Position numbers and translations under genes: made by a program. The notes beneath the pieces were generated by a model. That model was not told where the DNA came from, did not search any database, and saw nothing but the letters and a program-made list of their open reading frames with translations. A stretch of DNA of 60,584 nucleotides, the filler included. It is 4 parts of 4 records of this genome, joined end to end, with 100 filler letters (N's around TTAATTAATTAA, not from the genome) between each part and the next. Parts side by side here need not be neighbours in the genome. Positions count along the whole stretch, not along the records: positions 33,064 to 48,548 come from SRR20825019_859; 3 more parts are not named here. One strand, given 5' to 3'. Positions 28,878 through 47,040 of this stretch are shown piece by piece (positions within the stretch are counted from its first letter, which is position 1; every line of letters begins with the position of its first letter).

Positions 28878-30581
28878 ATGGCATACCTCACCCTGGGGTA
28901 TGTGATGTTGTTGATCTTGTGCCTTTCTTACGGGGCACAAGGGCAAGTCTCCGTGGAAGACGGGTCATATGGACTGGACGGCCCGGCCTGGTGTGACTTG
29001 AACTCTATGGAAGCAAAGGCTAACTTTCATGCATACAATGGAGAGGGACAAATATGTTATAGTTTATTCACAAATAAGAAGAACGTGGGCGACGCTCGCT
29101 CTACCTGTGAGCAGTATGGGGGAATTCTCGCGACAGTTGCGTCAGAGGCGACTACTGAGTTTTTGAAGAAGTCGTTTGCACATGTCCCAGACGGGGCACT
29201 GCCATATATCGGTTTGGTTGACCTGCGCAACAAGGGGAGCTGGCGTTGGGTGAATGGGATGAAACTGCAGGGATATGAAAACTGGGAACACGGGTCCAGA
29301 CGTCATGGAGGTGCCTGTGTTAGGTTGTCGGAGAAAGGGCAGTGGCTTCCAACCAAGTGCCACGTTCACTCCGCCTTCTTGTGCGAGAGCCAGTATCCCG
29401 ATGTTAGGAAGGCCGAAATATACGAGGGTAGTGCTGCTGGTGAGGTCCTTCAAACCGCCAAGCCTGCAGGGACAAACGGCGATGATGCTGAGAGTGGACT
29501 GACTGCGGCAAACTCGGCAAGTGATGAGGCTGCCGTTGCAAAGAACATAGGCTTAATTCACACCATGAAAGCAAGAATGTCTGGGGATATTCGCATTATC
29601 AGGGAGTCAAACCAGCGATGGTACAATATCTATGCCGATATGCTTCGGAGGGGAAAAATAGCAGCGGCACCTACTGTAACGAGACTAGATGTGTCATCGT
29701 TGTTCAAGGAAGTGCAAAAAACGTATGCGAACCTTGTTCACTGGATCAACGACGTTACAAACCAGGAAACTAGGCTAAAGGTTGCTGTTGCACTTTTAAC
29801 AAAGTCCCAAAGTATTCTCGCAAAATTCCGGTCTAAGTCGTACGCCGGGCGTATTGTGTTGGAGCGTGGTATTCGAAAGATACAGAGGAGAATACTTACA
29901 CTTGAGAGGCGCACTCTGAAATTGCTGGAACACCAGAAAGGGATATGGGGCATTGTGAAGGGAAGATTGAAGCGGCTTGATGATCTGCGGAAAAGGGAGA
30001 AACTTATGCATGGAACGATTGGGAAAGCTGCGTTGGTCGCTGACGATCTTCGCCAGAAGTCTGCGAGGCTTGCTCTGTTGGATCAGAGGATTGCTAAGGA
30101 GGAGAAGGCCATCGATAAGATGCAGAGGAAGGATGAAAAAAGCCGAGCAAAGATCGGAAAGAGCACACGTAAACAAGATCAAGTACTTGCTGATGCAAAG
30201 TGGGAGTTAGACAACGACAAAACCCATCGTAAGCGGTTCGTGAAGCGGCAAAAAGGGGAGCTGGATAACATTAATGAGCAACAAGAAAATTTGCGGAAAA
30301 GATTTCTGGACGAAGCAAGATACCTATCGGAAAAATTGTCTCCAGAGTTGGTTAAGGGAATGGCTAATGAGGCTGTTCAGACGTCATACGAAAAGGGAGC
30401 ACAGAAGCTTGTTGTTTTCTATGAAGATGCTGAGAAGGATATCTTACAAAACCTTTCTCAACTGTTCGCCACCGTCAAGTTTCCGAAGCCTCTTCACAAG
30501 GCCATGGTGCTAGATCTCATGGACACTGTGCAAAAGCGCGTACTCGAAAGGCTTAAGGCTGGGCATGATGGTTCTGAGTAA
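28878..30581 (+). CDS. Secreted C-type lectin-like domain + long basic coiled-coil protein
   Basis: Signal peptide; CY..F...A...C....G.LA, YIGL, WRWVNG..YENW, C..W....C....FLCE; heptad-rich C-terminal half. Confidence 0.8.
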   Translation: MAYLTLGYVMLLILCLSYGAQGQVSVEDGSYGLDGPAWCDLNSMEAKANFHAYNGEGQICYSLFTNKKNVGDARSTCEQYGGILATVASEATTEFLKKSFAHVPDGALPYIGLVDLRNKGSWRWVNGMKLQGYENWEHGSRRHGGACVRLSEKGQWLPTKCHVHSAFLCESQYPDVRKAEIYEGSAAGEVLQTAKPAGTNGDDAESGLTAANSASDEAAVAKNIGLIHTMKARMSGDIRIIRESNQRWYNIYADMLRRGKIAAAPTVTRLDVSSLFKEVQKTYANLVHWINDVTNQETRLKVAVALLTKSQSILAKFRSKSYAGRIVLERGIRKIQRRILTLERRTLKLLEHQKGIWGIVKGRLKRLDDLRKREKLMHGTIGKAALVADDLRQKSARLALLDQRIAKEEKAIDKMQRKDEKSRAKIGKSTRKQDQVLADAKWELDNDKTHRKRFVKRQKGELDNINEQQENLRKRFLDEARYLSEKLSPELVKGMANEAVQTSYEKGAQKLVVFYEDAEKDILQNLSQLFATVKFPKPLHKAMVLDLMDTVQKRVLERLKAGHDGSE

Positions 30582-31109: not shown

Positions 31110-32689
31110 TCAATCATCTTCTAGAACAGGAACTGTGGTAAAATCAAGGTCTTGAGCCTTCTGGTTTGTGCGATTGGTGTGCCGCACTACCGTTGCCTCG
31201 AATACATCACCATCGTCGTTCTCTTCATCTTCCTCTCGTGGGGCATACACTTCCTCGTCAGGGAGGTCTGCTCGCAGGATTAACATTCATGACACAAGCA
31301 TGCTTCATAGTCCTTACCTGGATCCTTCAGCTCGCCAGCATGAAGAGCCCGAATAATCGGTTTGGCTTGGAGATACGGGGGTATCTTCATATTCTTTTTC
31401 CTACTCTGCGCTGCAAGCTTCGTCACTATACTGAGAGAGCTAGCAACACTGGCCACTGTTTGTGCTCGCTTCCCTTCAGTCAAATCCTGCGTGTCTAAAT
31501 TCGAAGAACTGCTGCTTCGTGGATCGCGTTCCTCAACCTTATTAGACTTCTCCCCTTCTCCCTTGGTTTCACTCCCCTTGTCATTCTTGGATCCATTCTC
31601 CCCTCCCATAACTTCTTCCTTACTGCCGGTCTTCTTGAGATCTTTGTCGTTAGATTTCTTCAAGTCCTTGTCACTCGTCTTCTTGAGATCCTTGTCACTA
31701 GACTTCTTCAAGTCCTTATCACTTGCCTTCTTCAGATCCTTGTCACTTACGACCTTGTTCACTGCTGCCGGCTTGCGGCCAACAACCTTCTTCTTTTGCT
31801 TCTTCTTAAAGAGTTTTTCCATAGTCCTTTCCACTTCATCCTGACGCATCTTAATCACATCTGCCTTCATATCCCGTGCCTTCTCCGCCATTGTCCTAGC
31901 TTTGCTCACTGGCTCAGCAACGTCATCAATAGTGACTAACTCGCTGTTTTCAAAGCGACCCTTGTACATATTGCCTTGATGGCTTGTGTATGATCCCAGA
32001 CCATCGATCTTGCCATCCTTAAACATTCCCTCGTGCTTATTTCCCTTCGGATAGTAGTATATGCCGTAGCCATTTTCCTGCCCGTCCACATATTCTCCCT
32101 CATACCTTTCATTGGACAACTGGAAGAGATAAACCCCGATACCATCCCGTCGCCCATGCTTCCACTGACCCCAGTAGGTTTGGCGTGAACTCCATGTGAA
32201 TAACCCCATTCCATGAGCCTCATCGTCTACAAACTGACCCTCATACTGGCCTTTGTCAATGTACTTGTACTTTCCAAAACCATTTTTTTTTCCTCGGACC
32301 CATTCTCCATTGTAAACGTCTCCGTTGGTGTAAGTCATGACACCGTAGCCACAAGCCATTCCGTTTACAAAGTCGCCATCATATGTGTCACCATTCTTGT
32401 ACCGTAGTTCACCTGAGCCATGTGCATAGTCATTGCTAAACTCTCCATCATATCGGTGTCCAGCCGCCAGTGCAAATACGCCGTGTCCATTCCATCTATA
32501 CTCCATCATGTTCCCTTCAAATCTGTCGCCGTTCGGAAAACGGAACAAAGCCTTTCCATCTTTCGTAGCATCATGCACACCAAGTTCGCTATCAACGTCA
32601 TCCACCTCAAAGAATTTCAAGAGCCATGACATGGTTTTAGCAAGGGCAGACTTCTTGGGCTTGCCTTCTTCATCCATGTCTTTATCCAT
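31110..32689 (-). CDS. MORN-repeat protein with Lys-rich and acidic tail (intron 31268-31317)
   Basis: About 8 YxGx(W/F)xxGxxxGxG repeats; a 50-nt GTAAG...CAG intron extends the frame to a stop at 31110; 5' and 3' exon structure not certain. Confidence 0.8.
31628..31747 (-). repeat. 5 x 24-bp coding tandem repeat (S/N)DKDLKK(A/S/T)
   Basis: Seen directly in the MORN protein. Confidence 0.9.
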
Positions 32690-32963
32690 GGCGACCAACA
32701 CGGATTCACGACACACACAACTCCTAAGGATATATATGAGTACAGCATCTATGGAGCTTTATTGGGATACTAAGCTGGGCCCACTGTCAGCACCATTTGC
32801 ATGACTGTCGATGGGAACGCGCGGTGGCCGTGTTGAGAGGCCGGGCGGAGTAGTGGTCAGCTCCTGTCCTCACGATCCACCCCACCACGTTCGCCCTCGT
32901 CTCCAACGGTCGGGGTCAGGTGCCGTTCTGGCTCGGGGGGCCGGGGGGGGGGGGGGGGGGGGG

Positions 32964-33063
32964 NNNNNNNNNNNNNNNNNNNNNNNNNNNNNNNNNNNNN
33001 NNNNNNNTTAATTAATTAANNNNNNNNNNNNNNNNNNNNNNNNNNNNNNNNNNNNNNNNNNNN
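32964..33063. other. Artificial contig spacer
   Basis: N44-TTAATTAATTAA-N44. Confidence 0.98.
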
Positions 33064-33117
33064 GTTGTCTTTACAATCTATTCTGAATTTGTTTCATTTA
33101 ATTTAAGCATCCACTAT

Positions 33118-34023
33118 TTACAACCATTCTGTATCAATACCCATTTCAATAAACTCATCATAAATAGTATCTTTAGCATAGCATAAGGTTGCTTTTTTTA
33201 AATTAGGGAACTGTTTTGCATCGGTACTGTGTTCAATATCCCAATACTCCACTGCTCCACCAGAAAAAGGAGCTAAATTCATATAAATTTCGTTTCCGCC
33301 ATCTTGATAGATTTCTGTAACTTCTTCAGCCAAACGCTTTGGGATTGGTAAATCTTTAAAATATTGTTCTACTTCAGCAATAGGCCCGTAACCTTCCTCA
33401 TCAATATCTATCTCGCGACCTCTATACCATTTTGCAAATTCGTGAATATCAAATTGAGGCTTCAACAATTCTTTAGTATACATTAGCTCTTCAATAACCG
33501 ATAATTTAAATCCAAAATCTTCGAAAGTAATAACTTCTTCATCAAGTCGCTTAATTTTGTATTTATCTTCCGGTATTCCTTCCCAACGCACATACGGTTT
33601 GTAAGCACTTATTTCTATTGCGCTAACGGTGTCTTCGTTCATATCAAACCAAGCACTAATGCCATTCGAGACTAAAGCACCACTATCATCATTTTTAAAT
33701 AATTTTATATGCTGGTTTTTATGCGATTTATAGTAGCTTACAATTTCTTGATTGTTGTAATGAAATATCCCTGAAAATGCTTTTTTTGGACTAAAGTCAT
33801 AGGTTTCAGGTTGTAATTCTATAATTATAGATTCTATAAGTTCCCCACTTTTTGAGTAAGCCAATATTCCTAGATCATCCCAAGTAAAAATAGTATTGTT
33901 TTTCTTCTTTAAGGTTCGATAATTTTTAGTTAAATGGTCTTTTAACACATCCAAAGACACTGGAAACTCAACCATTCTTGAATTTATTTGAAAACCTTTT
34001 GGAGATAAATGTAACGCAATCAT
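33118..34023 (-). CDS. DUF6892-like protein (putative immunity-type)
   Basis: C-terminal FEDFGFKLSVIEELMY...YFKDLPIP....VTEIYQDGGNEIY...FPNLKK pattern. Confidence 0.7.
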   Translation of the reverse strand: MIALHLSPKGFQINSRMVEFPVSLDVLKDHLTKNYRTLKKKNNTIFTWDDLGILAYSKSGELIESIIIELQPETYDFSPKKAFSGIFHYNNQEIVSYYKSHKNQHIKLFKNDDSGALVSNGISAWFDMNEDTVSAIEISAYKPYVRWEGIPEDKYKIKRLDEEVITFEDFGFKLSVIEELMYTKELLKPQFDIHEFAKWYRGREIDIDEEGYGPIAEVEQYFKDLPIPKRLAEEVTEIYQDGGNEIYMNLAPFSGGAVEYWDIEHSTDAKQFPNLKKATLCYAKDTIYDEFIEMGIDTEWL

Positions 34024-34041
34024 AAGTCTATTTTAAGATTT

Positions 34042-34088
34042 CAAAAATAATAGCTTAATCTATATTTTTAATCCCTATCTTCCGTGAT
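34042..34088 (-). promoter_or_regulatory. Operator 1 (ATCACGGAAGATAGGGAT, 34071-34088) + -7 box TATTTTTG (34042-34049)
   Basis: 18-bp pseudo-palindrome, 21-bp gap, Bacteroidota TAnnTTTG element, upstream of the DUF6892-like gene. Confidence 0.75.
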
Positions 34089-34155
34089 ATTTTATATCTT
34101 GAAGCTATTCCTTTTTAGAATTATTTAAATTAACGCATATACTAAAAAGCCAAAA

Positions 34156-34202
34156 ATCCCCTATTTCGGGGATAAAATCTAAAAAGATTAGCTCTAAATT
34201 TG
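34156..34202 (+). promoter_or_regulatory. Operator 2 (ATCCCCTATTTCGGGGAT, 34156-34173) + -7 box TAAATTTG (34195-34202)
   Basis: Perfect 6-bp-arm inverted repeat, 21-bp gap, TAnnTTTG; upstream of the coiled-coil/VWA/PurA-like operon. Confidence 0.8.
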
Positions 34203-34218
34203 TTGAAAACCTTTTATT

Positions 34219-34569
34219 ATGGAAGATCAAGTAAAGAGTGCAGCGTTTATAGCATCATTAAAACGCAATAACGAAAAAATAAGAGACGATCGTGCGCATG
34301 CAATTGCAGAAGATGCACAATTAATGTACAAACGTGAAACCGAAGATTTGGCATTATCGCTAAAACGCTTAAAACGTGAACAAGAAAATATGCTTGATAT
34401 GAGCCCTACAGATGCCAACAGTCTGGTCTTAGCATCCGATTTTAATGCGAAAGATTACGTAGCAAAAGACATCGAAATGTCTGTAAAAATAAGGAACTTA
34501 GAAATAAAATTAGAATTAGCCAAAAAACGTTATTTACATTTATTTGGTGGAACAATAAACGAATTATAA
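34219..34569 (+). CDS. Hypothetical coiled-coil protein (116 aa)
   Basis: Heptad-rich ORF, first gene of a tight operon (2-bp gap to the VWA gene). Confidence 0.8.
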   Translation: MEDQVKSAAFIASLKRNNEKIRDDRAHAIAEDAQLMYKRETEDLALSLKRLKREQENMLDMSPTDANSLVLASDFNAKDYVAKDIEMSVKIRNLEIKLELAKKRYLHLFGGTINEL

Positions 34570-34571
34570 CT

Positions 34572-35438
34572 ATGGGAGGAGGAAGATTTAGTCACGATGC
34601 GTATTCTCGATTGAGAAAATCTAAAGGCTACAGTAATAAATCTAGAGAAGAAATTTTTACGGCTAGACAAATAGATCCTGAAATGGATCCTACAAAAGTA
34701 ATAGTTAGAGAGTCTCGAGATTCTGAGGAACATCCTGAAACGCTTTCTATTATTGTTGCTTTAGATGTAACAGGAAGTATGGGGTTTGTGCCAGAGCATA
34801 TTGTAAAAGAAGCTTTGCCAGACCTTATTGGTTCTTTAATGGAAGCTGGTATTGAACATCCACAAGTGTTATTTTTAGGCATTGGAGATTTTATTTATGA
34901 TAATGCACCATTACAAGTTGGACAATTTGAGTCATCAGCAGAGTTATTAGACCGTTGGTTAACCCGAGTTTATTTAGAAGGTGGCGGAGGTGGAAACAAT
35001 CAAGAAGGCTATAATCTAGCACATTTATTTGCTGCAAGACATACATCGATTGATTGTTGGGAAAAAAGACAACAAAAAGGATTTTTATTTACCATTGGTG
35101 ATGAACCTGTTTCTTCTGACATTCCTGCTGAAATTATAAAGAGATATACCCTTGCAGATGAGGCAGAAACCATAACTACAGAAGCCATTATTAAAGAGGC
35201 TCAAGAGAAATACAATGTTTTTCATATGCATTTAGAACATAATGAATTGTCTAAGCAAGAAAAACGTAAGGGAAATTGGAAAACGCTTTTAGGCGAAAAT
35301 TATATGGAAATACCAGATTTTAAATCCGTGGCAAAACGGATTGCAGAAGTGGTCATTAACAACCATAAACCAGGTGCCGCTACCAATAGATTTAATGCTT
35401 CTGGGAGTTCAGATATTAAAGTAGAGAATATGCTATAA
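34572..35438 (+). CDS. Stand-alone VWA (MIDAS) domain protein
   Basis: LDVTGSM (DxTxS), GIGD, EGGGGGNNQEGY, FTIGDE; Gly-rich MGGG N-terminus. Confidence 0.85.
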   Translation: MGGGRFSHDAYSRLRKSKGYSNKSREEIFTARQIDPEMDPTKVIVRESRDSEEHPETLSIIVALDVTGSMGFVPEHIVKEALPDLIGSLMEAGIEHPQVLFLGIGDFIYDNAPLQVGQFESSAELLDRWLTRVYLEGGGGGNNQEGYNLAHLFAARHTSIDCWEKRQQKGFLFTIGDEPVSSDIPAEIIKRYTLADEAETITTEAIIKEAQEKYNVFHMHLEHNELSKQEKRKGNWKTLLGENYMEIPDFKSVAKRIAEVVINNHKPGAATNRFNASGSSDIKVENML

Positions 35439-36572
35439 ATGCAAAAATGTAGTCTTGTTATAGATTTGGGATTTGGTGATGCCGGAAAAGGCTTAACAAC
35501 AGATTTTCTGGCATCTCAGTGTCCTCAAAAAAGTATCATCGTTCGATTTTCTGGAGGTCATCAAATTGGCCATACTGTTAGCACAAAAGAACTTACGCAT
35601 ACCTTTAGTAATTTTGGTTCGGGTACGTTATTAGGAGTACCTACTTATTATACTGAAAATACCACTCTTTTCCCACCTGGGATTCTAAAAGAAGGGAATT
35701 TTCTAAAAACATACCAGCCTAAATTATACTTAAATCCATTGGCTATGGTAACTACCATTTATGACATAGCCTATAATCGAGCCATTGAAAAACAACAACA
35801 TCACGGGTCTTGTGGCTTGGGCTTTGGAACAACAATCGCTCGAAACAAGGAAGAAGTTTATTTATATGCCAATGATTTAAAATTTCAATGGGTTTTGAAG
35901 CAGCGTTTACAAAGCATTAAAACCTACTACCAACATAAACTAAAAACCGAGAACAAAAGTGTTCAAGCGTATTACCATAATGAATTAAAAGAATACGATG
36001 AAGACTTCTTCATAAATTGCTGTATAGCCATCCAGAAGTTTTATAATGTAGCCTCACTTTCAGAGTTAGCATTCACTTATGAGCATTTTATTTTTGAAGG
36101 TAGTCAGGGTATTCTATTAGATACCCAACACGGTTTTTATCCACATACCACTTGGAGCTACACCACATCTAAAAATGCTATTCAGCTTATAAAAAAACAT
36201 TTAAGTGTTTCAGCGGAAATAGACATCTATTACATTACGCGTTGTTATCAAACCCGTCATGGTAATGGACCTATGTCTAACACGGAAGCTGTAACACTTT
36301 TGAATAATGAAAATGAAGCAAATATCACCAACGAATTTCAAGGGGAGTTTAGGACCAAGGCATTGGATCATGAATTACTTAATTACGCCTTAAGTTGTGA
36401 CTCTATTCATTATCAAAATTTAAAAATTAATAAATATTTAATATTGACATGCCTAGATCAACTTCCGGATTTTTCATGTGAAAGCTTACTTCAAAAAGTA
36501 AAAACTAAATTCAAAACAGTTTACGGTAGTTATGGACCTAAACGCCAATGTATCAAAGTTATTTCAAAATAA
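35439..36572 (+). CDS. Non-canonical adenylosuccinate synthetase (PurA/PurZ superfamily) paralog
   Basis: DLGFGDAGKG, RFSGGHQIGHT, HGSCGLGFG, FEGSQGILLD..HGFYPHTT, TRHGNGPM, LTCLD; lacks GxTTGRxRR. Confidence 0.85.
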   Translation: MQKCSLVIDLGFGDAGKGLTTDFLASQCPQKSIIVRFSGGHQIGHTVSTKELTHTFSNFGSGTLLGVPTYYTENTTLFPPGILKEGNFLKTYQPKLYLNPLAMVTTIYDIAYNRAIEKQQHHGSCGLGFGTTIARNKEEVYLYANDLKFQWVLKQRLQSIKTYYQHKLKTENKSVQAYYHNELKEYDEDFFINCCIAIQKFYNVASLSELAFTYEHFIFEGSQGILLDTQHGFYPHTTWSYTTSKNAIQLIKKHLSVSAEIDIYYITRCYQTRHGNGPMSNTEAVTLLNNENEANITNEFQGEFRTKALDHELLNYALSCDSIHYQNLKINKYLILTCLDQLPDFSCESLLQKVKTKFKTVYGSYGPKRQCIKVISK

Positions 36573-36718
36573 ATCAGTATGCCAATTGCCAACGCATTAG
36601 GCATTTTATAAAAAATGTATTTTTAGATCCAAGGCAAGCCTTGGTGTATTTAAATTTCCATTATACCGTAAAGTAATTCTGATGCATCACTCTCTAGAAG
36701 TATTTCGTTATTTTCAAA

Positions 36719-36765
36719 ATCATTAGTTTCAGGGATAAAGAACTCATTAGTTCAAAGTACCTTAG
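36719..36765 (+). promoter_or_regulatory. Operator 3 (ATCATTAGTTTCAGGGAT, 36719-36736) + -7-like box TACCTTAG (36758-36765)
   Basis: Same motif and 21-bp gap; upstream of the six-gene SMI1...HK-RR operon. Confidence 0.7.
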
Positions 36766-36789
36766 TTGCTTTAAACAACAATAGAGAAA

Positions 36790-37842
36790 ATGAACAATCC
36801 CATATTATATTCAGAAGGTTTTAAAGCACTGAAGTGGAATGATTTTAATTTCAAAACTATTCAAATAAACACCCTTTCAGCTCTTAAAGATCCAAGACAC
36901 TATAACAACTGTTTTATTTTTAGAGATTCACTTATAAAGGCCGTTGAAGAAGTATCTGGAAAGAAAGTTTCTAAGCTTCTTTTCATTACTCCAGATTATA
37001 AAACTGTTTATAAATTCTACATAATTGCTTATTTAGAAGGTAAAATAGTTTTCCCGCTTACAATAGAAAACACGCCATTATTTAAAGAATGGTTTACGGC
37101 TATAGATGATGAAAAGGATAAAGATCTTATTTCTACTATTTATAACTTCAGTCATAGTAGTTATAGCTCACAACCGATTACTAATTTAGAGCATATGACT
37201 TTTCATGAAAATACAGGGGATTTTATTAATCAATTTATTCCAAATGAGTTTATAGCTGAACAATTGGCTAAAGAAAAGGCTGATTTTTTAAATCCTTATA
37301 TTCAATTAAAAGCACAAATTAATATTGAAGAAGTAAAGCAAACCTTTGAAACCTTAATTAAGGCTAAAGGGTTAACCATAAATTCTCCGACAAATAACGA
37401 TGCCATTTATGATGCTTTTGAAAAAGAAGCGGGATTTCCTTTTCCACAAATTATCAAAGCGTACCTAAGCTTGCATAATGGTATTGACAGATGCGCCATA
37501 ATGGGTGCTGAAACAATTTACAAAGAATGGAAACAATGGAAAGCTATCTATGATGATTGGACGCAAGAAGAGTTGCTAGATACGTACACTACAAATCAAG
37601 GAAAAGCATTATTAATGTACACTACCCCTTATTGGATTCCATTTTTTGATTTAAGTAATGGCAATTTTTTAGCCTTCGATTTTGCACCTAATACCAAAGG
37701 TACTGCTGGGCAAATTATTCGTTATGGTGCCGATCAAGAAATTGGATATATCCATGCAGACAACTTACATACATTTCTAAAAAGTTTACTAAATAATGAA
37801 GGTGAAATTGAGGATCATGAATGGTTTTATACAGCCCAGTAG
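36790..37842 (+). CDS. SMI1/KNR4 (SUKH) domain protein with N-terminal extension
   Basis: FEKEAGFPFP..IKAYLSLHNG, WIPFFD.SNGN..AFDFAP...GTAGQII. Confidence 0.85.
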   Translation: MNNPILYSEGFKALKWNDFNFKTIQINTLSALKDPRHYNNCFIFRDSLIKAVEEVSGKKVSKLLFITPDYKTVYKFYIIAYLEGKIVFPLTIENTPLFKEWFTAIDDEKDKDLISTIYNFSHSSYSSQPITNLEHMTFHENTGDFINQFIPNEFIAEQLAKEKADFLNPYIQLKAQINIEEVKQTFETLIKAKGLTINSPTNNDAIYDAFEKEAGFPFPQIIKAYLSLHNGIDRCAIMGAETIYKEWKQWKAIYDDWTQEELLDTYTTNQGKALLMYTTPYWIPFFDLSNGNFLAFDFAPNTKGTAGQIIRYGADQEIGYIHADNLHTFLKSLLNNEGEIEDHEWFYTAQ

Positions 37843-37884
37843 ATGTATTAAAAAAGAAAATAATTTTTGATTAACACCCAGCAA

Positions 37885-40368
37885 ATGTCTACTATTTTTA
37901 AAGAGCACATAATTCCTAAATTAAATATAAAATCATTTAAAGGCGCTGAAATAAAAGCATTACTTCAGATATTAAAATTAATGCATGCCACCGACAATGA
38001 AATCTATAAGAATGCAAAAAAGGATTTTGATACAAATACTACAACCCCTAATTTTACTAATAATCTATCCCAAAGTATTTACTTACACCCAAAAATATAT
38101 GCCAAGGAAAGACAAGGCTTAAAATTTGTTGAGTCTTGGCTTCCACTCTTGGAAAATGGTTTTTATCCTGATAAAAAAAGTACTAGAAAACTTCTTGAAT
38201 TTTTACACTTCAATCTCAGTTATTTTCAGTCAGAAGATACCTCAGAAATAGAAAAAATTCAACTTTTTAAAGTTTTAAAATTGCTGATTCAGAGTAAATC
38301 TGAAGCCTCTCTTCCTGTGGCGTGTTTTTTAATTCATAGGATTTTTGATATTCGAGATGTATTGAACTCAGATTTTATAATTCAGCATTGCCTCAAACAT
38401 CAGCTATTAACAGAAGGATATACCATTAAAAATACAGATCTTTCGATAAGTACAATTCCGTTTGCCATTGATAAGCATTTTATCACGCATTTTTTTGATG
38501 GCAATTGGCATCTATTTATCACAAAGTTTCATCAATTATTACCTGTGGGTCTTGTATATGCTCCATCCGCTTACGATTTGATGTCATCCTGGTTTAGTTT
38601 TGATTTAGCGTCTTTTTATGAAAGCCACCAAGAGATGGCCATTTTCGCAAATCAAGCACTAAAAGAACGTATTATTTGGGGAGAAACTAAAAGCTTAGAA
38701 CTGCTAAATATCCAAACTAAGAACGGTAATTATCCCTTAATAAATGTTTTAGCCAAAAAAACTTGGGATGCTGGTGATGTATTACTATTCAACAATCGAG
38801 ATAAAAACATACCGCAGCAACAGTTAGATAGTTGTTATTTAAATTTTTTAGATTGGTTACTAGTAGATGCTGGAAGCAATTTGAATTCGGAAGCTTTTAC
38901 TGGTTACGGAATTAAAATTTTAAGTGAGTGCACAGCAGAAGCACTTCCGTTAGAATGCATTCCATTTTGGCTTCACAAATGTCATCCAAAAACTAGTCAT
39001 AAAAATCAGAGGGAACTATTAAATCCCATATTCACCAAGTTACTACTAGAAACAACGCACGCAACACTTCCTGCAATGCGTTTTGAAGGAGCAGATTTTC
39101 AAGTCAAAGGAACATTTTTAATTTCCGAAATATTCAAGACAGAAAATAACCTAAAAGAGTGGCTTGAAGACTTTAAAAAGGAAGGTATTAAAAACCCATT
39201 AAATCAATTTTTAATACGCATCTATTATGATGCTAATGAAGAACTAACTTTAATATACACTAAAGAAGAACAAGAATATTTACAGTTATATTTAATAGAA
39301 TTAGCATACTCTTCTAGATATGTAAGTGATTCTATTAGAAAGAAAAATCTACCTATCCTTGTAAAAACTCTTGCTAAATTATGTGCAGAACCAGTAAATT
39401 TCTCACGTGTTAACGAGATTTGGGCACTAAAAAATATTGATGTTTGTATTATAGATATTTGTAACAATTTTGCTCGAGAACACTATATCAATGAAAATAG
39501 TCCGTTAAACTTAAATCTTATACAAGCTTGGTTTAATTATTTAGGCGATTATTTCTATAGTCTAACCAAGGAGGCTGTTTGGGTATCAGAAGCATTAACC
39601 ACTCAAGGCTTACGCACAGCAAATTTCTTCAATATAGAAAAAGAAGATGTTAGCTATTTTTTAGAAAGATTAATTAACCGTATCATTGATTTTCATAAAC
39701 GATGTAAGCTCAAGGAAGAAACCAATCCTATATTCAATAATATTTCTAAACAAATTGAATTGTATTTAACCGATTTTCTTATAGCATTAAAAGAAGAAAA
39801 ACTAAATATAAATACTATAAACTATCTCTATAATTATTGTAAAAGTGATGGAGCTGGTTTAATAAAACAATCCAAATTAATTACTGCTATTAATAATTTA
39901 CATCAATTTCATTTTAAAGAAGAATTATCAACAGAAACCGATTATGAAGTATCACAATTACCTGTCTCTAAAGTTGAAATTGAAATCGTTGAGATTAATA
40001 AAAAGTATGTAGATGCCGTACTTCATAATCTAGAAAATTATAAAGAGGAAGGATGCGACACCCAGTTATTAACAGGTTTATATGAAAAGATAGACGACTT
40101 TAAAATCTGGATAAATTGTGATAAAACTGGAATCGAAACACGATTTAGTCAAGCCCTTTATAAGACGTTGCTCGATACAAATTTAACCCCTAAAACAGAT
40201 TTAAAAACCTACGGCACGCTTTGCAGAAACCTATTTGTGTATTTAGTAAAAGGAACTAAAATGTCCGATTCCTACGTAATGGGATTAAAGGCTATGACAA
40301 AATCTGGAGTCTATCCAGAACATATAACAGCTAATCTACGGCAAGTGGTTAAAGATTTAAATGTTTAA
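37885..40368 (+). CDS. Large hypothetical, likely alpha-helical protein (about 830 aa)
   Basis: Long ORF in AT-rich DNA within the operon; no motif recognised; alternative TTG start at 37867. Confidence 0.8.
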   Translation: MSTIFKEHIIPKLNIKSFKGAEIKALLQILKLMHATDNEIYKNAKKDFDTNTTTPNFTNNLSQSIYLHPKIYAKERQGLKFVESWLPLLENGFYPDKKSTRKLLEFLHFNLSYFQSEDTSEIEKIQLFKVLKLLIQSKSEASLPVACFLIHRIFDIRDVLNSDFIIQHCLKHQLLTEGYTIKNTDLSISTIPFAIDKHFITHFFDGNWHLFITKFHQLLPVGLVYAPSAYDLMSSWFSFDLASFYESHQEMAIFANQALKERIIWGETKSLELLNIQTKNGNYPLINVLAKKTWDAGDVLLFNNRDKNIPQQQLDSCYLNFLDWLLVDAGSNLNSEAFTGYGIKILSECTAEALPLECIPFWLHKCHPKTSHKNQRELLNPIFTKLLLETTHATLPAMRFEGADFQVKGTFLISEIFKTENNLKEWLEDFKKEGIKNPLNQFLIRIYYDANEELTLIYTKEEQEYLQLYLIELAYSSRYVSDSIRKKNLPILVKTLAKLCAEPVNFSRVNEIWALKNIDVCIIDICNNFAREHYINENSPLNLNLIQAWFNYLGDYFYSLTKEAVWVSEALTTQGLRTANFFNIEKEDVSYFLERLINRIIDFHKRCKLKEETNPIFNNISKQIELYLTDFLIALKEEKLNINTINYLYNYCKSDGAGLIKQSKLITAINNLHQFHFKEELSTETDYEVSQLPVSKVEIEIVEINKKYVDAVLHNLENYKEEGCDTQLLTGLYEKIDDFKIWINCDKTGIETRFSQALYKTLLDTNLTPKTDLKTYGTLCRNLFVYLVKGTKMSDSYVMGLKAMTKSGVYPEHITANLRQVVKDLNV

Positions 40369-40371
40369 ATA

Positions 40372-41031
40372 ATGACACAAGATATCACACCCAAAATTCA
40401 GAACCAATTAAATTTATCGGCCTTGATTTTGAAGAAAAATCATAAAAACGCAGCCTTAAAAAGTTGGTCGGGTTTTAACCTAAAAGATGCAATGCACGTT
40501 AAGCATGCGGAAAGACTTTTAACTATGTACGGTATTAAATCAGGCTTGCATTTACGGAACAGTTTACAACGTTACGAGAGCGGACAAATGGTATCTCATA
40601 CTTTTGAAAAATTAGCCGCAGCGTTTCGCAATGATACCAGTAAGACTTTTGAAGCTAAATACCAAGCTCTAGAAAGTCCTAAAACCAAAAACACCTACAA
40701 AATGGTGTGGAAATATCGTTTCAGTTTAAAAAATCAAAAACTCAGAGGATATGAAATGGCAATGTACATTTTTCAAATGAGATTAGGCCTCGTCTTAGAC
40801 TTTATAACAACAGAAGAAATGATGTTGCGTTTAGAAGAAGCCTACAATATTACAAAGTCCACGTTTTCTAGTTGGGGAGAATTTCACCGCAACGTGTGCT
40901 TGGGAGATGAGTACGTTTTAGGGGCTACAGAACTCGATGTTAGTAAATTCCCAGGGACAGAAACACTTTGGGAGCACTACCAACGCTTACATATAGCACA
41001 TGCCGATTGGTTTAAAGAATGGAAAAAATGA
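40372..41031 (+). CDS. DUF1266-like protein
   Basis: L..MYGI.S, GYEMA....MRLG....FIT.EE, FSSWGEF....CLG pattern. Confidence 0.7.
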   Translation: MTQDITPKIQNQLNLSALILKKNHKNAALKSWSGFNLKDAMHVKHAERLLTMYGIKSGLHLRNSLQRYESGQMVSHTFEKLAAAFRNDTSKTFEAKYQALESPKTKNTYKMVWKYRFSLKNQKLRGYEMAMYIFQMRLGLVLDFITTEEMMLRLEEAYNITKSTFSSWGEFHRNVCLGDEYVLGATELDVSKFPGTETLWEHYQRLHIAHADWFKEWKK

Positions 41032-43271
41032 GGATAACAGAACAAGAGCTTATACAACAAATTGAGCGTGCAGAACAACTGTACAAGACCAACCTTTATA
41101 TGCATTTACAGCCTGTAATTAGTAATATACAAGAGCACCTAGAGCTTTTAACTAATAATTCAGACTATGCCAAATATTACCGCATTTATATGCTGTATAT
41201 TGGGATTTATGAAGAACTGAATATGCAAGTTTTGCAGTCTTATTTACAAGCATTAATTAACATTAATGAAGTAGAAGCATCAGATTACGAATACGTTTGT
41301 AGTTATTACAAACAATGTGAAGAAACAGTGTACCAAGAAGCTTTAATGCTATATCCATACAACGAAACTTTACACCTACATTACGCTTTAAAATTACAAG
41401 AAGATAAACGTTTTAAAGAAGCTATTGTTACTTTAAAATATATCCTAGAATGTTATCCTGCCTCCACAGAAGCTCGATTCTTACTTTGGGATATTGAAGC
41501 AACTCAATTAGCACATTTATGTGCATCAAACGAAGAAGCAAACTGCTATGAACTTTTAGAATTAGCTTCGGCTACTCATAATGAAGAAGTTTTAAAAGGA
41601 TTACAATTAGATCATCGATTAGATAAAGCAAATCAAACTTTAGCCTATATACAGGTTGCACTGTGGGAAGAAAGGTCTACTGAAATAAAACAACATTGGA
41701 ATACAGAATGGAAACTTTTAGAATTGACAGCAGTAACACGTATGCTCTTGGCAGATTATGCAAAATCTTTTATGATGTACGATATGGTATCTCAAGTTTT
41801 AAAAGCACCTTCAGAACCAGAGTTTCCAGAAGAAGAGTATAGTAATTTTGAGGAATATCAAACGTTTATCAAGGCGTTTGCTACTTCTGGCTGGCAATTG
41901 GCACAACATCAATATGTATTGATAGGAAATTCGGCATATTTTTATTCAAAAAATAAAGAAATCTTAGATATTAGTGTAGAAAGAGGCTTAGCTTTAAATC
42001 CTAAAAACCCATTACTATTGGTATTAAAGGCAAAATCCTTTTTTTTTGTCAATAATTATAACGAGACCGGAGTAAATTACCACGAAGCATTTAAAAACGG
42101 TCTCCGTTTGAGTGAATATCTATTTTATTTACTAGAAGTAAATAGTAGAATTGAAAATTGGCAAGGTATATTAGATATTGTTGCTCAGTTTCATAAAGGG
42201 ACTCCTCCTACACTTAAAACCTTATTTTTTAAAGCACGTGCACTCGTCAAATTAAGACAATTTGATGAAGCTCTGGAAACGATTAATGTAGCGCTTTCTG
42301 ATTTTCCGTTACCACCTCATTCTTACGCACCATGGTTGTATAACTTAAGAATGATTATTCATAAACAAAACCATAACTACACGGCTTTTTTTGAAGATAT
42401 GCAGTCAGAAATCAATTATTATACTATTGGCGACTCAGAATATTGTAGCACAATGAATATGTGTATTGAAGCCCTTATTGAAATGGGCAATTATCAAGAA
42501 TGTTACAAATATGCCATATATAACCACGAACAAGGACAATTATTACCAGAATTATATCCTGTGTTTCTGTGGATTTGTTTTTATGATTATTTAGAAAAAC
42601 CTGATGATATAGCAGACGCTTCAGAACTAGATTTAATACAAGAACCTTCTACTTTTATAGAATACAGAACCAATGGTTTAATATATTGGATGCTAGGTAA
42701 CATCTGTGCTGCTACAAATGCATTACAACAAGCGGCACAACTAGCCACAAACAAAGCTTACTATTTAAAACTAGCATTAAGTTGCGCTAAAGAGGATTTT
42801 AATACTACAAAAAGTATTGCTGCTTGCCAAATTATTAAAACCCAGATACCAGAATCTAGTGACTGGAAAACAGACTATCTGTTAGCCGATTTATTAAAAA
42901 CAGGGAAGCATTATAAAAAAGCATTAGCTAGTTTTAACCAATTATTACAAAGCTATCCAGACTATTCGTTTTTTGAATTTCCAAAAGACAATAATAATAT
43001 GATGCTAGCCACACTTAAAACATTATCTAAAGCTATAGAGAATGAAGGAGATTACATCAAATACAACGCTATGCTTTTAAGTAAAGAGAATCCTTCTGCT
43101 AACGCATTATTAGAACATTTAGAGGTCGTACAAACGCACTTTGAAACTGATAAATTCCTTCTGCATAATTTATTAGAACAAATTTTCAAGTTAAATATTG
43201 ATTTAGAAAATAATGAATTAGAATTGTTAAAAGACATCAAATCTAAAATAAGAACCTCATATTTCAATTAA
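41028..43271 (+). CDS. TPR-repeat protein
   Basis: Multiple TPR-like helical pairs (RGLALNPKNP, KARALVKLRQFDEAL, ALASFNQLL..YP); ATGA overlap with the upstream stop. Confidence 0.78.
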   Translation: MRITEQELIQQIERAEQLYKTNLYMHLQPVISNIQEHLELLTNNSDYAKYYRIYMLYIGIYEELNMQVLQSYLQALININEVEASDYEYVCSYYKQCEETVYQEALMLYPYNETLHLHYALKLQEDKRFKEAIVTLKYILECYPASTEARFLLWDIEATQLAHLCASNEEANCYELLELASATHNEEVLKGLQLDHRLDKANQTLAYIQVALWEERSTEIKQHWNTEWKLLELTAVTRMLLADYAKSFMMYDMVSQVLKAPSEPEFPEEEYSNFEEYQTFIKAFATSGWQLAQHQYVLIGNSAYFYSKNKEILDISVERGLALNPKNPLLLVLKAKSFFFVNNYNETGVNYHEAFKNGLRLSEYLFYLLEVNSRIENWQGILDIVAQFHKGTPPTLKTLFFKARALVKLRQFDEALETINVALSDFPLPPHSYAPWLYNLRMIIHKQNHNYTAFFEDMQSEINYYTIGDSEYCSTMNMCIEALIEMGNYQECYKYAIYNHEQGQLLPELYPVFLWICFYDYLEKPDDIADASELDLIQEPSTFIEYRTNGLIYWMLGNICAATNALQQAAQLATNKAYYLKLALSCAKEDFNTTKSIAACQIIKTQIPESSDWKTDYLLADLLKTGKHYKKALASFNQLLQSYPDYSFFEFPKDNNNMMLATLKTLSKAIENEGDYIKYNAMLLSKENPSANALLEHLEVVQTHFETDKFLLHNLLEQIFKLNIDLENNELELLKDIKSKIRTSYFN

Positions 43272-43292
43272 AGGTATTAAGTTTACATTTTA

Positions 43293-45260
43293 ATGAAGTT
43301 ATCTCTTACATATTTTATATTCAATTTCTTCTTTTATATAGGAATTAGCACCTTGTCTTATGCTCAAGACATAGATAGTACGATTGAATTAGATTCTCTT
43401 GCAAACATTTATTATACCAATATTTATACGCAACCCCAAATTGCAAAATTAGCCGCTACAAAATGGCTCGAAGGAAGCAAAAATTCAGATTTGGGACTTC
43501 AAGAAGCAAGTGCCTTGTATGCATTAGGAAACCTTAGTAATATTATTGGAGAATATAAAAACACCATAAAATATACAAATCAAGCTATTGATTTACTTAA
43601 AAAACTGGACACTAAAAAAGGATTAGCGGCTTGTTATAATATCCTCGCTTCTGCCTATAAAAATTTAGGTGAATATCCGAAAGCTATTGACTGTTTTATG
43701 AATTGCTTAAAGTATTCAAAACAAACCAATAGCCAAATACAGGAAGCTAATGCATATCTAAATATAGCAACATTGTATCTGCTTCAAAAAGATTATAAAA
43801 AATCAGCAGAAAATCTAGATCGTGCTGCCAATCTCTATCGCTCTTTAGGAGATGATGATGGAGTGCTCACAACGCTATTTAATTTTGCAAATATTTTAAA
43901 AGAACAAGGTAAGTTTAGTCAAGCAAGAAAGCATTACCAAACCGTTTTAGATTACAGAGAAAAAGAAGGTAATAAAGCGGCTGTTGCCTATGTAAATATA
44001 AATCTTTCGCAAATGTTAGTGGAAGAAGGTAAGTGTAAAGAAGCTGTTGTAGCTCTAAAAAAAACATTAGCTCTTTTAGAAGAGCTAAAATTTAATTCAG
44101 ACATTAGTATTGTTTTAAACGATTTAGGTTTATGCGAAACAAAATTAGGTAATACAATTGCAGCGATAAATTATTTTCAACGCGCTTTAGCTATTGGCGA
44201 AGAACAATCGCTACACCCATACAGTTCCGACATATACAAGAATCTGGCAAATTTATATCAAAAAGAAAACAATTATAAAAAAGCATTTGAATTCTATCAA
44301 AAAGGAGTGGCAAGTACTGCGGAGCAAAACTCACTTGATAAAAAGGTATATGTAGCTGAAATACAAGAACGCTATGAAACAGCATTAAAGGAAGCTAGAA
44401 TTCAATTATTAGAAAAAGAACAAAAATTAGGAGAAACAGAATTGCAAAAAGTAGAGCTCACTGTAAAACGCCAACGCTTAGTTAGAAATGTTTTAATAGC
44501 TGGATTTATATTGGTTTTTATTACTTTAATTATTTTAAGGGTTTCTCATATTAAAAGACTACGCATTCAAAAAGAATTGAGTATCCAGCAAGAGGAAAAT
44601 GCTAAGCAGCAAATAAATAAAATGATAAATGATCATAAACTATCTGTTATTGAGCGCTATCAAGAAGGTCAAGATGAAGAACGTTCAAGACTTGCTCGGG
44701 AAATTCATGATGGTATTGGCAGCGATTTAGCAAGCATCAAAATAGCGTTCGAGCAGTATTCAGAACAACACCATGATGATTTCCAATCTAGGAGAATCGC
44801 TTCTGCTATTAATAATGCTTGTGCGGATGTTCGTAGCCTTTCTCATCAATTACACCCGCTCCCCTTTTCAAAAATAGGATTCACTAGTTTTTTAAGTGAT
44901 TTTATTGATCAAATAACTAAAAAAACAGCTACTGAAATTCAAACTTTTTTCTTTCCAGAAGAAGCGATTGATGAGTTACCTGATTTCTTACTAGCAGACG
45001 TATACCGTATTGTACAAGAATTAATTAATAATATTCTAAAACATGCAGAAGCCAAGCATGCTGCTGTTCAACTCACCATGCATGAAGATCATTTAAATAT
45101 TGTTATAAACGATGATGGTATAGGTTTTCAAAATAACAAAAAATCGGGAATAGGGCTTCGAAATATAAAAGAACGCTTACATAAAATTCAAGGTAGTTTA
45201 GAAATCGATTGTAGCCCAGGACGCGGAACATCAATTACCATTGACATACCAGTAAATTAA
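43293..45260 (+). CDS. TPR-sensor histidine kinase (HisKA_3 + HATPase_c)
   Basis: Signal peptide, periplasmic TPR array, one TM (NVLIAGFILVFITLIIL), RLAREIHDGIG H-box, ELINNILKHA, DDGIGF, GIGLRN. Confidence 0.93.
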   Translation: MKLSLTYFIFNFFFYIGISTLSYAQDIDSTIELDSLANIYYTNIYTQPQIAKLAATKWLEGSKNSDLGLQEASALYALGNLSNIIGEYKNTIKYTNQAIDLLKKLDTKKGLAACYNILASAYKNLGEYPKAIDCFMNCLKYSKQTNSQIQEANAYLNIATLYLLQKDYKKSAENLDRAANLYRSLGDDDGVLTTLFNFANILKEQGKFSQARKHYQTVLDYREKEGNKAAVAYVNINLSQMLVEEGKCKEAVVALKKTLALLEELKFNSDISIVLNDLGLCETKLGNTIAAINYFQRALAIGEEQSLHPYSSDIYKNLANLYQKENNYKKAFEFYQKGVASTAEQNSLDKKVYVAEIQERYETALKEARIQLLEKEQKLGETELQKVELTVKRQRLVRNVLIAGFILVFITLIILRVSHIKRLRIQKELSIQQEENAKQQINKMINDHKLSVIERYQEGQDEERSRLAREIHDGIGSDLASIKIAFEQYSEQHHDDFQSRRIASAINNACADVRSLSHQLHPLPFSKIGFTSFLSDFIDQITKKTATEIQTFFFPEEAIDELPDFLLADVYRIVQELINNILKHAEAKHAAVQLTMHEDHLNIVINDDGIGFQNNKKSGIGLRNIKERLHKIQGSLEIDCSPGRGTSITIDIPVN

Positions 45261-45266
45261 TAAATT

Positions 45267-45902
45267 GTGGAGAAAACAAACATTATAATTGCAGACGATC
45301 ATTTAATGTTCATTGAAGGGATCAATACCATTTTAAAAAATATGGACGAAATTGGAGAAGTGCATATTGCAACTGAAGGGAAACAGGTTATTAGATTACT
45401 CTCTCAGTTTAAAATTGGTTTAATTATAAGCGACATTAGTATGCCCAAAATGGACGGTATAGAATTGCTTACAGAAATTAAAAAAAAGCATAAAGACGTA
45501 AAAATAATCATGTTGAGCATGCTCGACAATCATAGAACAGTACATAAAGTCATACAAAAAGGGGCAGACGGTTTTGTTCCGAAGTTTACAAGTAAAGAAG
45601 AGCTACAAAAAGCGGTACGTTCCGTTTTAAATGATGAACAATACTTTTCTGAACTCATAAAACAACGATATATGGAAAGTGTTTTTGAACGCAAAAAATA
45701 TAAAAACATCGAACTATCACCAAGAGAGAAGGATGTCTTAGCGCTTTTAGGAGAAGAGCTTACTTCTAAAGAGATTTCAGAAAAATTATTTATCTCTGTA
45801 AATACAGTAGAAACGCATAGAAAAAATATCCTATTAAAAACAGGTTCTAAAACTACAACTGGCGCAGTACGATTTGCAATAGAGTCTGGACTATTTGATT
45901 AA
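45267..45902 (+). CDS. NarL/LuxR-family response regulator
   Basis: IIIADDH, SDISMP phospho-Asp, LSPREKDVL...SKEISEKLFISVNTVETHRKN HTH; GTG start. Confidence 0.95.
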   Translation: MEKTNIIIADDHLMFIEGINTILKNMDEIGEVHIATEGKQVIRLLSQFKIGLIISDISMPKMDGIELLTEIKKKHKDVKIIMLSMLDNHRTVHKVIQKGADGFVPKFTSKEELQKAVRSVLNDEQYFSELIKQRYMESVFERKKYKNIELSPREKDVLALLGEELTSKEISEKLFISVNTVETHRKNILLKTGSKTTTGAVRFAIESGLFD

Positions 45903-45989
45903 AAAAGCGGCTGTATAAAAAGTGAATTTATAGTTTCAAACTGAGTTTAGACACTTATTATTTAGTCACTTTTTTGTTTTTTTAAACTA

Positions 45990-46973: not shown

Positions 46974-46993
46974 AAATGATATTTTATACCATA

Positions 46994-47040
46994 TAAATTT
47001 AAGTCTGTTCAAGTTTTAAACGCTCACTGTTTTCCGTGAA
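46994..47040 (-). promoter_or_regulatory. Operator 4 (TTCACGGAAAACAGTGAG, 47023-47040) + -7-like box TAAATTTA (46994-47001)
   Basis: Same motif and 21-bp gap; upstream of the lipoprotein gene. Confidence 0.65.

Follow-up and report, generated by a model that had tools for sequence, protein, structure and literature searches.

Within a 60,584 nt stretch of concatenated DNA (hereafter the window), we analysed an open reading frame (ORF) at positions 35439-36572 on the plus strand, which specifies a 377 aa protein of the PurA superfamily (P0001). Judged by its sequence and its predicted structure, this PurA-fold enzyme is neither canonical PurA (adenylosuccinate synthetase, AdSS) nor PurZ, its counterpart in certain phages. 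It belongs to what appears to be a third deep clade, in which the machinery for phosphoryl transfer is kept whilst both substrate pockets have been rebuilt, and which is linked to a gene for a von Willebrand factor A (vWA) protein. Our preferred explanation, to which we assign a probability of about one half, is that the enzyme is a guanosine triphosphate (GTP)-dependent ligase that joins an oxo-purine-type substrate to an amine other than aspartate, acting with its vWA partner in a conflict module concerned with nicotinamide adenine dinucleotide (NAD) and adenosine diphosphate (ADP)-ribose.

The ORF is open over its full length, opposite a strand full of stop codons, and its start codon follows directly on the stop codon of the preceding gene. 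All of the motifs quoted in a preliminary description of this DNA are present in the 377 aa translation, namely DLGFGDAGKG (residues 9-18), GGHQIGHT with its intact catalytic histidine (39-46), HGSCGLGFGT (122-131), NITNEFQGEFRT (295-306) and TCLD (337-340). The protein matched PF00709 over residues 7-341 with 120 bits (cut-off 27), and it fell below the cut-offs of both PurA equivalog models (NF002223, 96.5 bits vs 402; TIGR00184, 81 bits vs 395.55) and of the PurZ model (NF038379, 34.2 bits vs 300). An AlphaFold2 model, for which 84 relatives served as the alignment, reached a predicted local distance difference test (pLDDT) score of 95. When this model was searched with Foldseek, 43 matches were obtained at E ≤ 0.001, the strong ones being without exception AdSS, PurZ or PurZ0; the top match was Helicobacter pylori AdSS (E 6e-23, template modelling score 0.76, 20% identity), and structure-based identity to PurZ and PurZ0 was 15-16%. 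Structure prediction, which had been put forward earlier as a check, thus returned a PurA fold. A tblastn search of the window with Escherichia coli PurA gave this ORF as the sole match. In the literature we found no paper on the clade, the term 'PurA-like' being confined to announcements of genomes and to papers on other subjects.

Active-site residues were compared in a MAFFT alignment of 84 family rows, three phage rows and seven canonical PurA rows, including E. coli PurA from NC_000913.3; numbering follows E. coli PurA without its initiator methionine, unless the protein's own numbering is stated. In E. coli AdSS, Asp13, Lys16, His41 and Gln224 are the catalytic residues, Val273, Thr300, Thr301, Arg303 and Arg305 make up the L-aspartate site, and Asn38, Thr129, Thr239 and, from the other subunit, Arg143 clamp the 5'-phosphate of inosine monophosphate (IMP). 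G12, D13, G15, K16, G17, H41, E221, Q224, R272 and D333 were unchanged in 84/84 family rows, and the catalytic residues (D14, K17, H45 and Q223 in own numbering) were retained in the three phage copies as well. The enzyme shares with PurA/AdSS (EC 6.3.4.4; structures 1ADE/1CG0 of E. coli and 6ZXQ/9F17 of H. pylori) its fold, its P-loop including the catalytic Asp, and the residues His41, Lys16, Gln224 and D333, the last from the base-specificity motif. It also keeps this Asp (GFGDAGKG) where PurZ carries Ser, as the preliminary description had pointed out; Ser was found in 5/5 phage PurZ sequences (QFGSTGKG or QFGSEAKG/QYGSEAKG).

The residues that line the two substrate pockets, in contrast, have been replaced. 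At the aspartate site, V273 has become His (H274 in own numbering) and T301 has become Gln (Q301) in all 84 family rows and all three phage rows, G298 is Asn in 80 of the 84, and T300 is F, W or Y. The arginine run is likewise broken up, with E, A, D or another residue for R303, a gap for R304, F, L or M for R305 and R or K for R306. At the IMP side, N38 is Q in 84/84, I126 is H in 83/84, T128 is S in 80/84 and T129 is C in 79/84, R131 is V or L, K140 is N or H, and R143 is G, E, P or another non-basic residue, so that T239 is the sole member of the 5'-phosphate clamp to be kept. Furthermore, K331 is Cys and V334 is Gln throughout the 84 rows, and the ∼45 residues that follow the TKLD motif in canonical PurA are absent. 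A HMMER alignment to H. pylori AdSS, in which the loop was shifted by one position, likewise showed the Asp loop to be lost; in the H. pylori enzyme, the Asp-binding loop is described at residues 289-294, together with a trans-subunit Arg135 (PMC11276676). Two independent alignments, one by HMMER (H. pylori AdSS) and one by MAFFT (E. coli and six further canonical PurA sequences), thus agree with the earlier claim that the aspartate-binding loop has been lost, and by the conservation of its replacements this loss is to be regarded as a trait of the family and no local accident.

As the catalytic residues have been kept and the pocket residues both replaced and fixed, the alignments and the model indicate that the enzyme still has what is needed to transfer a phosphoryl group to an oxo-purine, and that the sites for aspartate and for the 5'-phosphate of IMP have both been rebuilt with residues under strong selection. 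The preliminary description had inferred a ligase that still activates a purine nucleotide but joins it to a different amine. The retained catalytic residues and the rebuilt aspartate site agree with this, whereas the purine nucleotide and the different amine stay predictions; the IMP clamp, which it did not mention, is altered too (at N38, T129 and R143), and the first substrate may thus differ as well. A metal site made up of C125, C269 and C338 was considered and rejected, as conservation of these cysteines does not extend to the phage copies.

In order to place the family, a quick IQ-TREE tree (LG+C20+F+G4, PMSF) was computed from 59 rows. One side of a branch of length 1.52 (SH-aLRT 99) held 44 bacterial family rows and three vWA-linked phage rows, whilst the opposite side held seven canonical PurA (97) and five PurZ rows (98), the latter from phiVC8 and four other phages. 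PurZ hence lies on the side of canonical PurA, and the family lies opposite, across a branch that is well supported in a tree with long branches. The family and its phage members would thus constitute a third deep clade beside PurA and PurZ, and together with the scores below the equivalog and PurZ cut-offs this bears out the initial view that the protein lies outside both. In being a phage-carried, shortened (∼340-390 aa) paralogue with a PurA fold, PurZ/PurZ0 (succino-amino-deoxyadenylate synthase; 6FKO, 7ODX, 7VF6) resembles the enzyme described here; PurZ, however, still uses aspartate, whereas the family has lost the aspartate site. The phage hosts differ too, PurZ being found in Arthrobacter and small Vibrio phages and the vWA-linked enzyme in cluster-C-type Mycobacterium, Rhizobium and 191-kb Vibrio phages. 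Pfam scans of the piece that holds the gene contained no gene of the datZ/mazZ/dpoZ type, although no search aimed at such genes was made.

In related genomes, the family gene does not stand in for the housekeeping enzyme. Canonical purA was found above cut-off in 10/10 related genomes that hold a family member (Formosa, Chryseobacterium, Flavobacterium, Mesonia, Joostella, Sinomicrobium, Catalinimonas, Olivibacter, and one metagenome-assembled genome (MAG) each of Acidimicrobiales and Hahella). Where PF00709 was the model, canonical copies scored 575-611 bits and family copies 108-153 bits; with TIGR00184, canonical copies reached 492-530 bits and the family copies of five genomes 75-86 bits. 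The PurA-like gene is thus an extra paralogue beside canonical purA in all ten. Taken together, it differs from PurA/AdSS in its identity (∼20-26%), in failing the equivalog models, in its replaced Asp site and IMP clamp, in its missing C-terminal segment, in having a vWA partner and in coexisting, in these related genomes, with a normal purA.

The family is large and widespread. With a family profile, 4031 clusters at 50% identity were recovered at E ≤ 1e-30 among 1.84 billion representatives, and at least 556 stretches of species-representative genomes encode a relative, the best 80 of which formed our locus set. By tblastn of phages, the enzyme was detected in 238 records and the vWA protein in 218. 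Mycobacterium phages of ∼155 kb accounted for 201 enzyme and 200 vWA records, Rhizobium phages of ∼207 kb for 10 of each and Vibrio phages of ∼191 kb for six of each, and the two genes were adjacent in all three phage loci inspected. Relatives of 30-36% identity are encoded on megaplasmids of Rhizobium, Rhodococcus, Agrobacterium and Methylorubrum; plasmid matches came to 66 records, some of which are possibly ordinary PurA. The module is mobile, occurring in chromosomal variable regions, on megaplasmids and in >200 large phages.

In the window, the enzyme is specified by the last of three abutting plus-strand genes (34219-34569, 34572-35438 and 35439-36572). The first encodes a 116 aa helical/coiled-coil protein (P0122) without a Pfam family, and the second a 288 aa vWA protein (P0123) with a complete metal-ion-dependent adhesion site (MIDAS; D65-x-T67-x-S69, T158, D177). 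The vWA protein had no Pfam match; its AlphaFold2 model (pLDDT 86) found vWA and integrin I domains as best Foldseek matches (E 2e-7 to 1e-5), and it matched phrog_2971 at 153 bits. Both neighbours named in the preliminary description are thus present, and the vWA assignment of the second is upheld by its predicted fold. The arrangement is conserved, with the vWA gene directly 5' of the PurA-like gene in 77/80 genome loci and a coiled-coil gene (111-131 aa) directly 5' of the vWA gene in 65/80. The 15 loci without a coiled-coil match comprised five with a J-domain kinase-like gene, three without the vWA gene, two cut by contig ends and five with other or no ORFs at this position.

Between Bacteroidota, Gammaproteobacteria, Spirochaetes and Acidobacteriota, the coiled-coil protein keeps an identity of 50-92%, and it is better conserved than the enzyme itself. 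None of its 862 database relatives carries a name; a search of the ESM Atlas returned sub-threshold matches only (0.79), and tblastn against phages gave no match. The Rhizobium phage gene at the corresponding position encodes a HIRAN protein that is not homologous. The kinase-like gene, of ∼290 aa, sits in the place of the coiled-coil gene, is homologous to mycobacteriophage gp258 (Pfam: Pkinase) and, as we read its HPD motif, carries a J-domain. As for the vWA family, an N-terminal MG was found in 118 of 119 homologues (MGxG in 117), the exception being a fragment, and a C-terminal ML in 108 of 119; the three phage copies begin with MG or (M)GSG. The second residue varies in the coiled-coil and PurA-like families, unlike the MG of the vWA protein.

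Three side observations concern the vWA gene. Mycobacterium phage Sauce gp259 (L003:3197-4984), annotated as an HNH endonuclease, is the vWA partner plus a probable intein, which would contribute the homing-endonuclease part; on our reading, the putative intein interrupts the conserved KGxLFTIGDE motif, which includes the MIDAS Asp, exactly. In a library of a marine metatranscriptome, one 168-nt contig is identical to positions 35259-35426, which lie in the 3' portion of the vWA gene; since carry-over of DNA is possible, it was not counted as expression. Several marine metagenome runs hold DNA contigs nearly identical to this region.

A connection to NAD and ADP-ribose emerged from the neighbourhoods of related cassettes. 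In loci of the Chryseobacterium/Flavobacterium type (L033-L083), a same-strand cluster reaches from ∼3.5 kb 5' to 6 kb 3' of the PurA-like gene. Its 5' part runs NrtR, NADAR, 2-oxoglutarate (2OG)-Fe oxygenase and the cassette, which is followed by genes for a macro-like protein, microbial PARG, DUF4291, ARH, SIR2, a second ARH, Tpt1/KptA and a metallophosphoesterase; the macro-like gene had no Pfam match and is so named by our reading. A divergent NrtR gene lies 100-125 bp from the cassette in the Hahella and Acidimicrobiales MAGs (L018, L021), Nudix and nicotinate phosphoribosyltransferase (NAPRTase) genes follow the cassette in L014, and a WYL regulator and RtcB follow it in L011. Among phages, NADAR, Rv2179c-like exoribonuclease and TROVE genes flank the enzyme/vWA pair in Vibrio phage pv27, a Pfam-confirmed NUDIX gene and a HIRAN gene precede it in the Rhizobium phage, and PNKP phosphatase and kinase-like genes precede it in the mycobacteriophage.

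Operator-like sites point in the same direction. NrtR has been described as binding an operator with a GT-N7-AC core (PMC2330246), and a palindrome with this core precedes the nrtR genes of related loci. Allowing ≤ 1 mismatch, the pattern TTGYGT-N7-ACRCAA occurred at 149 sites in 46 of the 80 loci, vs 8.2 sites in mononucleotide shuffles. Of the 65 loci with a coiled-coil gene, 30 carry such a box no more than 200 nt upstream of that gene, 28 of them being of the Chryseobacterium type and two being Saprospiraceae MAGs; L057 has one ∼25 nt before its kinase-like gene. In the Chryseobacterium/Flavobacterium cluster, boxes precede nrtR, NADAR (two boxes) and the coiled-coil gene.

These neighbourhoods recall the NrtR- or WYL-regulated systems, centred on ADP-ribosylglycohydrolase (ARG), that were predicted to counter ADP-ribosylation and in which vWA is a predicted 'chaperone' (Iyer, Burroughs, Anantharaman & Aravind, 2022; PMC9503650). 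The likeness lies in the NrtR, ARH, Macro-like, NADAR, calcineurin-like phosphatase and vWA genes held by Chryseobacterium/Flavobacterium cassette loci and, at one further cassette locus, in a WYL regulator with RtcB. Adenylosuccinate, PurA and AdSS have no mention in the main text of that article. Pfam scans detected no ARG gene in the window's own piece, and most of the diverse loci similarly have none nearby; the vWA/PurA-like triad would thus be a module separable from such systems.

On the basis of these observations, the enzyme would be the catalytic subunit of a three-gene module, alongside a coiled-coil (or J-domain kinase-like) protein and a MIDAS-vWA protein. Its P-loop would bind a nucleoside triphosphate, probably GTP to judge by the conserved residues. 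Since the family retains the four catalytic residues (Asp, Lys, His and Gln), the enzyme would probably still phosphorylate the oxo group of a purine-type substrate, in the way that PurA phosphorylates IMP. The phosphate would then give way to an amine different from L-aspartate, in an acceptor pocket rebuilt such that invariant His, Gln and Asn stand in for Val273, Thr301 and the Arg303/Arg305 pair. Given control by NrtR, a sensor of ADP-ribose, and ADP-ribose-processing neighbours in many lineages, the module most likely acts during NAD breakdown or ADP-ribosylation of macromolecules, in the course of phage-host or interbacterial conflict. The chemistry, the use of GTP, the NAD/ADP-ribose link of this particular copy and the physical cooperation with the vWA protein are all points that we infer.

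Several considerations weigh against this explanation. One basic residue survives in the rebuilt loop (R in 76 and K in 8 of 84 rows) and could still bind a carboxylate, and the roles of the active-site residues are carried over from the E. coli enzyme. The tree was a quick one that drew long-branch warnings for the phage and PurZ rows, and archaeal PurA and PurZ0 were left out of it; of the placement against PurA, PurZ and PurZ0 suggested in the preliminary description, the tree thus gives the separation from PurA and PurZ. In 20 diverse loci (124 ORFs), most flanks consist of unrelated genes, others having the look of defence or prophage regions. Many loci with an NrtR link stem from Chryseobacterium genomes that are close relatives of one another, and these amount to few independent events. 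Moreover, Pfam scans revealed no NrtR gene in the window's own 15.5-kb piece, and the window contains no match to TTGYGT-N7-ACRCAA (≤ 1 mismatch). As this copy bears another palindrome, its NAD link is by homology only. A complex prediction for the enzyme and the vWA protein, run without controls or supplied alignments, scored 0.00 and bears neither way on binding.

Of the other explanations, the one that survives best is salvage of a small molecule, which we consider possible though rather unlikely: a 6-oxopurine nucleotide would be aminated by ammonia or a small amine, or a NAD precursor amidated, such that adenylate or NAD pools are rebuilt during a NAD-depleting attack and the vWA protein is only a regulator or scaffold. 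NrtR regulons consist for the most part of NAD synthesis and salvage genes (PMC2330246), and NrtR boxes or genes accompany many cassettes. NAPRTase and Nudix genes adjoin the cassette in L014, and the Rhizobium phage locus has, besides its NUDIX gene, a gene annotated as phosphoribosyltransferase-like. Small polar His, Gln and Asn in place of Arg might also suit a small, uncharged nucleophile. Salvage nevertheless leaves unexplained the linkage of the vWA gene (77/80 loci, and the three phage loci inspected) and the third gene, which, being either J-domain kinase-like or a highly conserved coiled-coil, points to action at the level of proteins.

In a more specific form of the ligase explanation, in which we place rather little confidence, the amine would be the α-amino group of the vWA partner's N-terminal glycine, exposed by removal of Met. 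The enzyme would phosphorylate a 6-oxopurine nucleotide and join its C6 to the N-terminus, giving an N6-linked purine nucleotide on a protein, made when NrtR signals NAD breakdown. The hints are the near-invariant MG of the vWA family, which also hints, indirectly, at the peptide or protein amine named as a possible acceptor in the preliminary description, the loss of the pocket's carboxylate-binding arginines, and the glycine-derived nature of the known AdSS inhibitor hadacidin.

It is improbable that the enzyme is a divergent but true AdSS isozyme, joining IMP and aspartate under special conditions and regulated by the vWA and coiled-coil proteins. Such a role would fit the PF00709 match over residues 7-341, the retained catalytic D, K, H and Q, the label 'adenylosuccinate synthetase' in public records and the one Arg/Lys left in the loop. 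Against it stand scores of 96.5 and 81 bits, far under the equivalog cut-offs of 402 and 395.55, the replacement of V273, T300, T301, R303, R305 and R143 by residues fixed in 84/84 or nearly all members, the separate deep clade and the canonical purA present in 10/10 family-holding genomes.

Slightly less probable still is that the enzyme targets a purine base carried by a polynucleotide chain or located at the end of a nucleic acid, by a reaction such as re-amination of hypoxanthine or modification of guanine, as a member of a repair set whose targets would be RNA or DNA harmed by deaminase or ADP-ribosylating toxins. The loss or change of the clamp for the 5'-phosphate of free IMP (R143, K140, R131, T129, N38) would be compatible with this, as would neighbours with nucleic acids or nucleic-acid termini as substrates (Tpt1/KptA, NADAR, the 2OG-Fe oxygenase, RtcB with the WYL regulator and, in phages, TROVE/Ro-like, Rv2179c-like exoribonuclease, HIRAN and PNKP phosphatase). 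The case is, however, a contextual one, the neighbours vary by lineage, and the PurA fold is not known to have a polynucleotide substrate. NADAR enzymes are described as undoing guanine ADP-ribosylation (PMC11543638, PMC11125620). Finally, a catalytically silent GTP-binding switch that steers the vWA and coiled-coil proteins is the least probable of all: heavily altered substrate pockets and tight coupling to non-enzymatic partners would suit a pseudoenzyme, but the base D14, the acid H45, K17 and Q223 are invariant in 84/84 members and 3/3 phage copies, as are the new pocket residues H274, Q301 and N295, which is as expected of an active site under selection.

The ligase explanation matters for several reasons. 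For the chemistry of PurA, phosphorylation of an oxo group followed by displacement of the phosphate by an amine, aspartate is the single acceptor known to date, in PurA as well as in phage PurZ. Here, several thousand sequence clusters would make up a third deep clade with its catalytic core kept and both substrate pockets rebuilt, linked to a vWA protein and common to bacteria of many phyla, megaplasmids and >200 large phages. The clade is often wired to a sensor of NAD breakdown, amid enzymes that remove ADP-ribose. Identification of its product would extend the known nucleotides, or the known modifications of proteins or nucleic acids, by one, and would probably also reveal a further participant in the contest over NAD and ADP-ribose that phages and bacteria wage. 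The name 'adenylosuccinate synthetase' is likely to be wrong for thousands of the database entries that bear it. Should the N-terminal glycine of the vWA protein prove to be the acceptor, a new kind of protein-nucleotide conjugate, used in conflict by bacteria and large phages alike, would be at hand.

The window copy has regulatory elements of its own. An inverted repeat of the type ATCCCT-N6-(C/A)G(T/G)GAT occurs upstream of the cassette at 34071-34088 (+), a second copy, ATCCCC-TATTTC-GGGGAT, at 34156-34173 (+), 46 nt before the coiled-coil ATG and also listed as a hairpin on the minus strand, and a third at 36719-36736 (+), upstream of the SUKH-1 gene; a weaker match of the ATCCCT-N6-AGGGAT type lies at 47023-47040. 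With ≤ 2 mismatches, ATCMCYNTNTTCMGKGAT had four matches in the window vs 0.51 expected, a number reached in 0/100 shuffles. In related loci of Flavobacteriaceae (L004-L013), the same repeat likewise precedes the cassette; it is common to the Formosa, Winogradskyella, Leeuwenhoekiella and Joostella loci, and occurs in exact form ∼35-50 nt beyond the PurA-like gene in L008 and L010. It is thus a candidate operator of some regulator, and the third copy makes it possible that the SUKH-1 gene is co-regulated with the cassette. The upstream palindrome was also considered as an NrtR box and rejected, the GT-N7-AC core being absent. Between the second copy and the coiled-coil gene, TAAATTTG at 34195-34202 (+) reads as a putative -7 promoter box; it fits the Bacteroidota -7 consensus TAnnTTTG, and relatives carry TAACTTTG at the matching place. 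Beyond the enzyme gene, a consensus scan located a terminator-like hairpin, CCAAGGCAAGCCTTGG, at 36629-36644 (+), 57 nt past the stop codon, as one of three such sites vs 1.4 expected. An Rfam scan of 33000-37900 gave nothing credible, its one chance match being to a snoRNA (E 0.35), and thus no riboswitch was detected in this region.

The cassette is flanked on its 5' side by a minus-strand gene for a DUF6892/DUF7738 protein (33118-34023). On the other side, the next gene after the PurA-like gene encodes a SUKH-1 (SMI1/KNR4) protein (36790-37842), followed by an 833-aa protein without a known family (37867-40368) and a DUF1266 protein (40372-41031). The Pfam scans also identified tetratricopeptide repeat (TPR) proteins and a two-component pair elsewhere on the piece. 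The SUKH-1, 833-aa and DUF1266 genes are kept in 10/80 related loci and the DUF6892 gene in 9/80; families of the SUKH-1, DUF6892 and DUF1266 type presumably resemble the immunity proteins of polymorphic toxin systems. A PADLOC search gave no match for the enzyme and only weak or irrelevant ones for its partners and neighbour (AbiEii, E 0.0015, for the vWA protein; PDC-M40A for the SUKH protein).

As regards the window as a whole, spacers at 20738-20837, 32964-33063 and 48549-48648, each made up of 12 bases framed by a run of 44 N on either side, divide it into four pieces with G+C contents of ∼62%, 52%, 31% and 50% in order. It is thus a concatenation and not a single locus, being composed of contigs of different organisms or drawn from a mixed assembly. 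The PurA-like ORF sits on the 31% G+C piece (33064-48548, from SRR20825019_859), the proteins of which are Flavobacteriaceae-like, P0001 being 99% identical to a Galbibacter orientalis entry. The 62% G+C piece contains a VWA_CoxE protein (17248-18426, minus strand) and an AAA ATPase (19602-20546, minus strand); these resemble an ordinary MoxR/CoxE-type pair and are unrelated to the PurA-like cassette. The 52% G+C piece holds an intron-free ORF of 1487 aa (23564-28027, minus strand) with Nup160/Nup120 domains (PF23354, E 3.5e-49; PF11715, E 3.8e-39; and three more), beside genes for a C-type lectin protein (28878-30581) and a MORN-repeat protein (31280-32716), which together have a eukaryote-like look.

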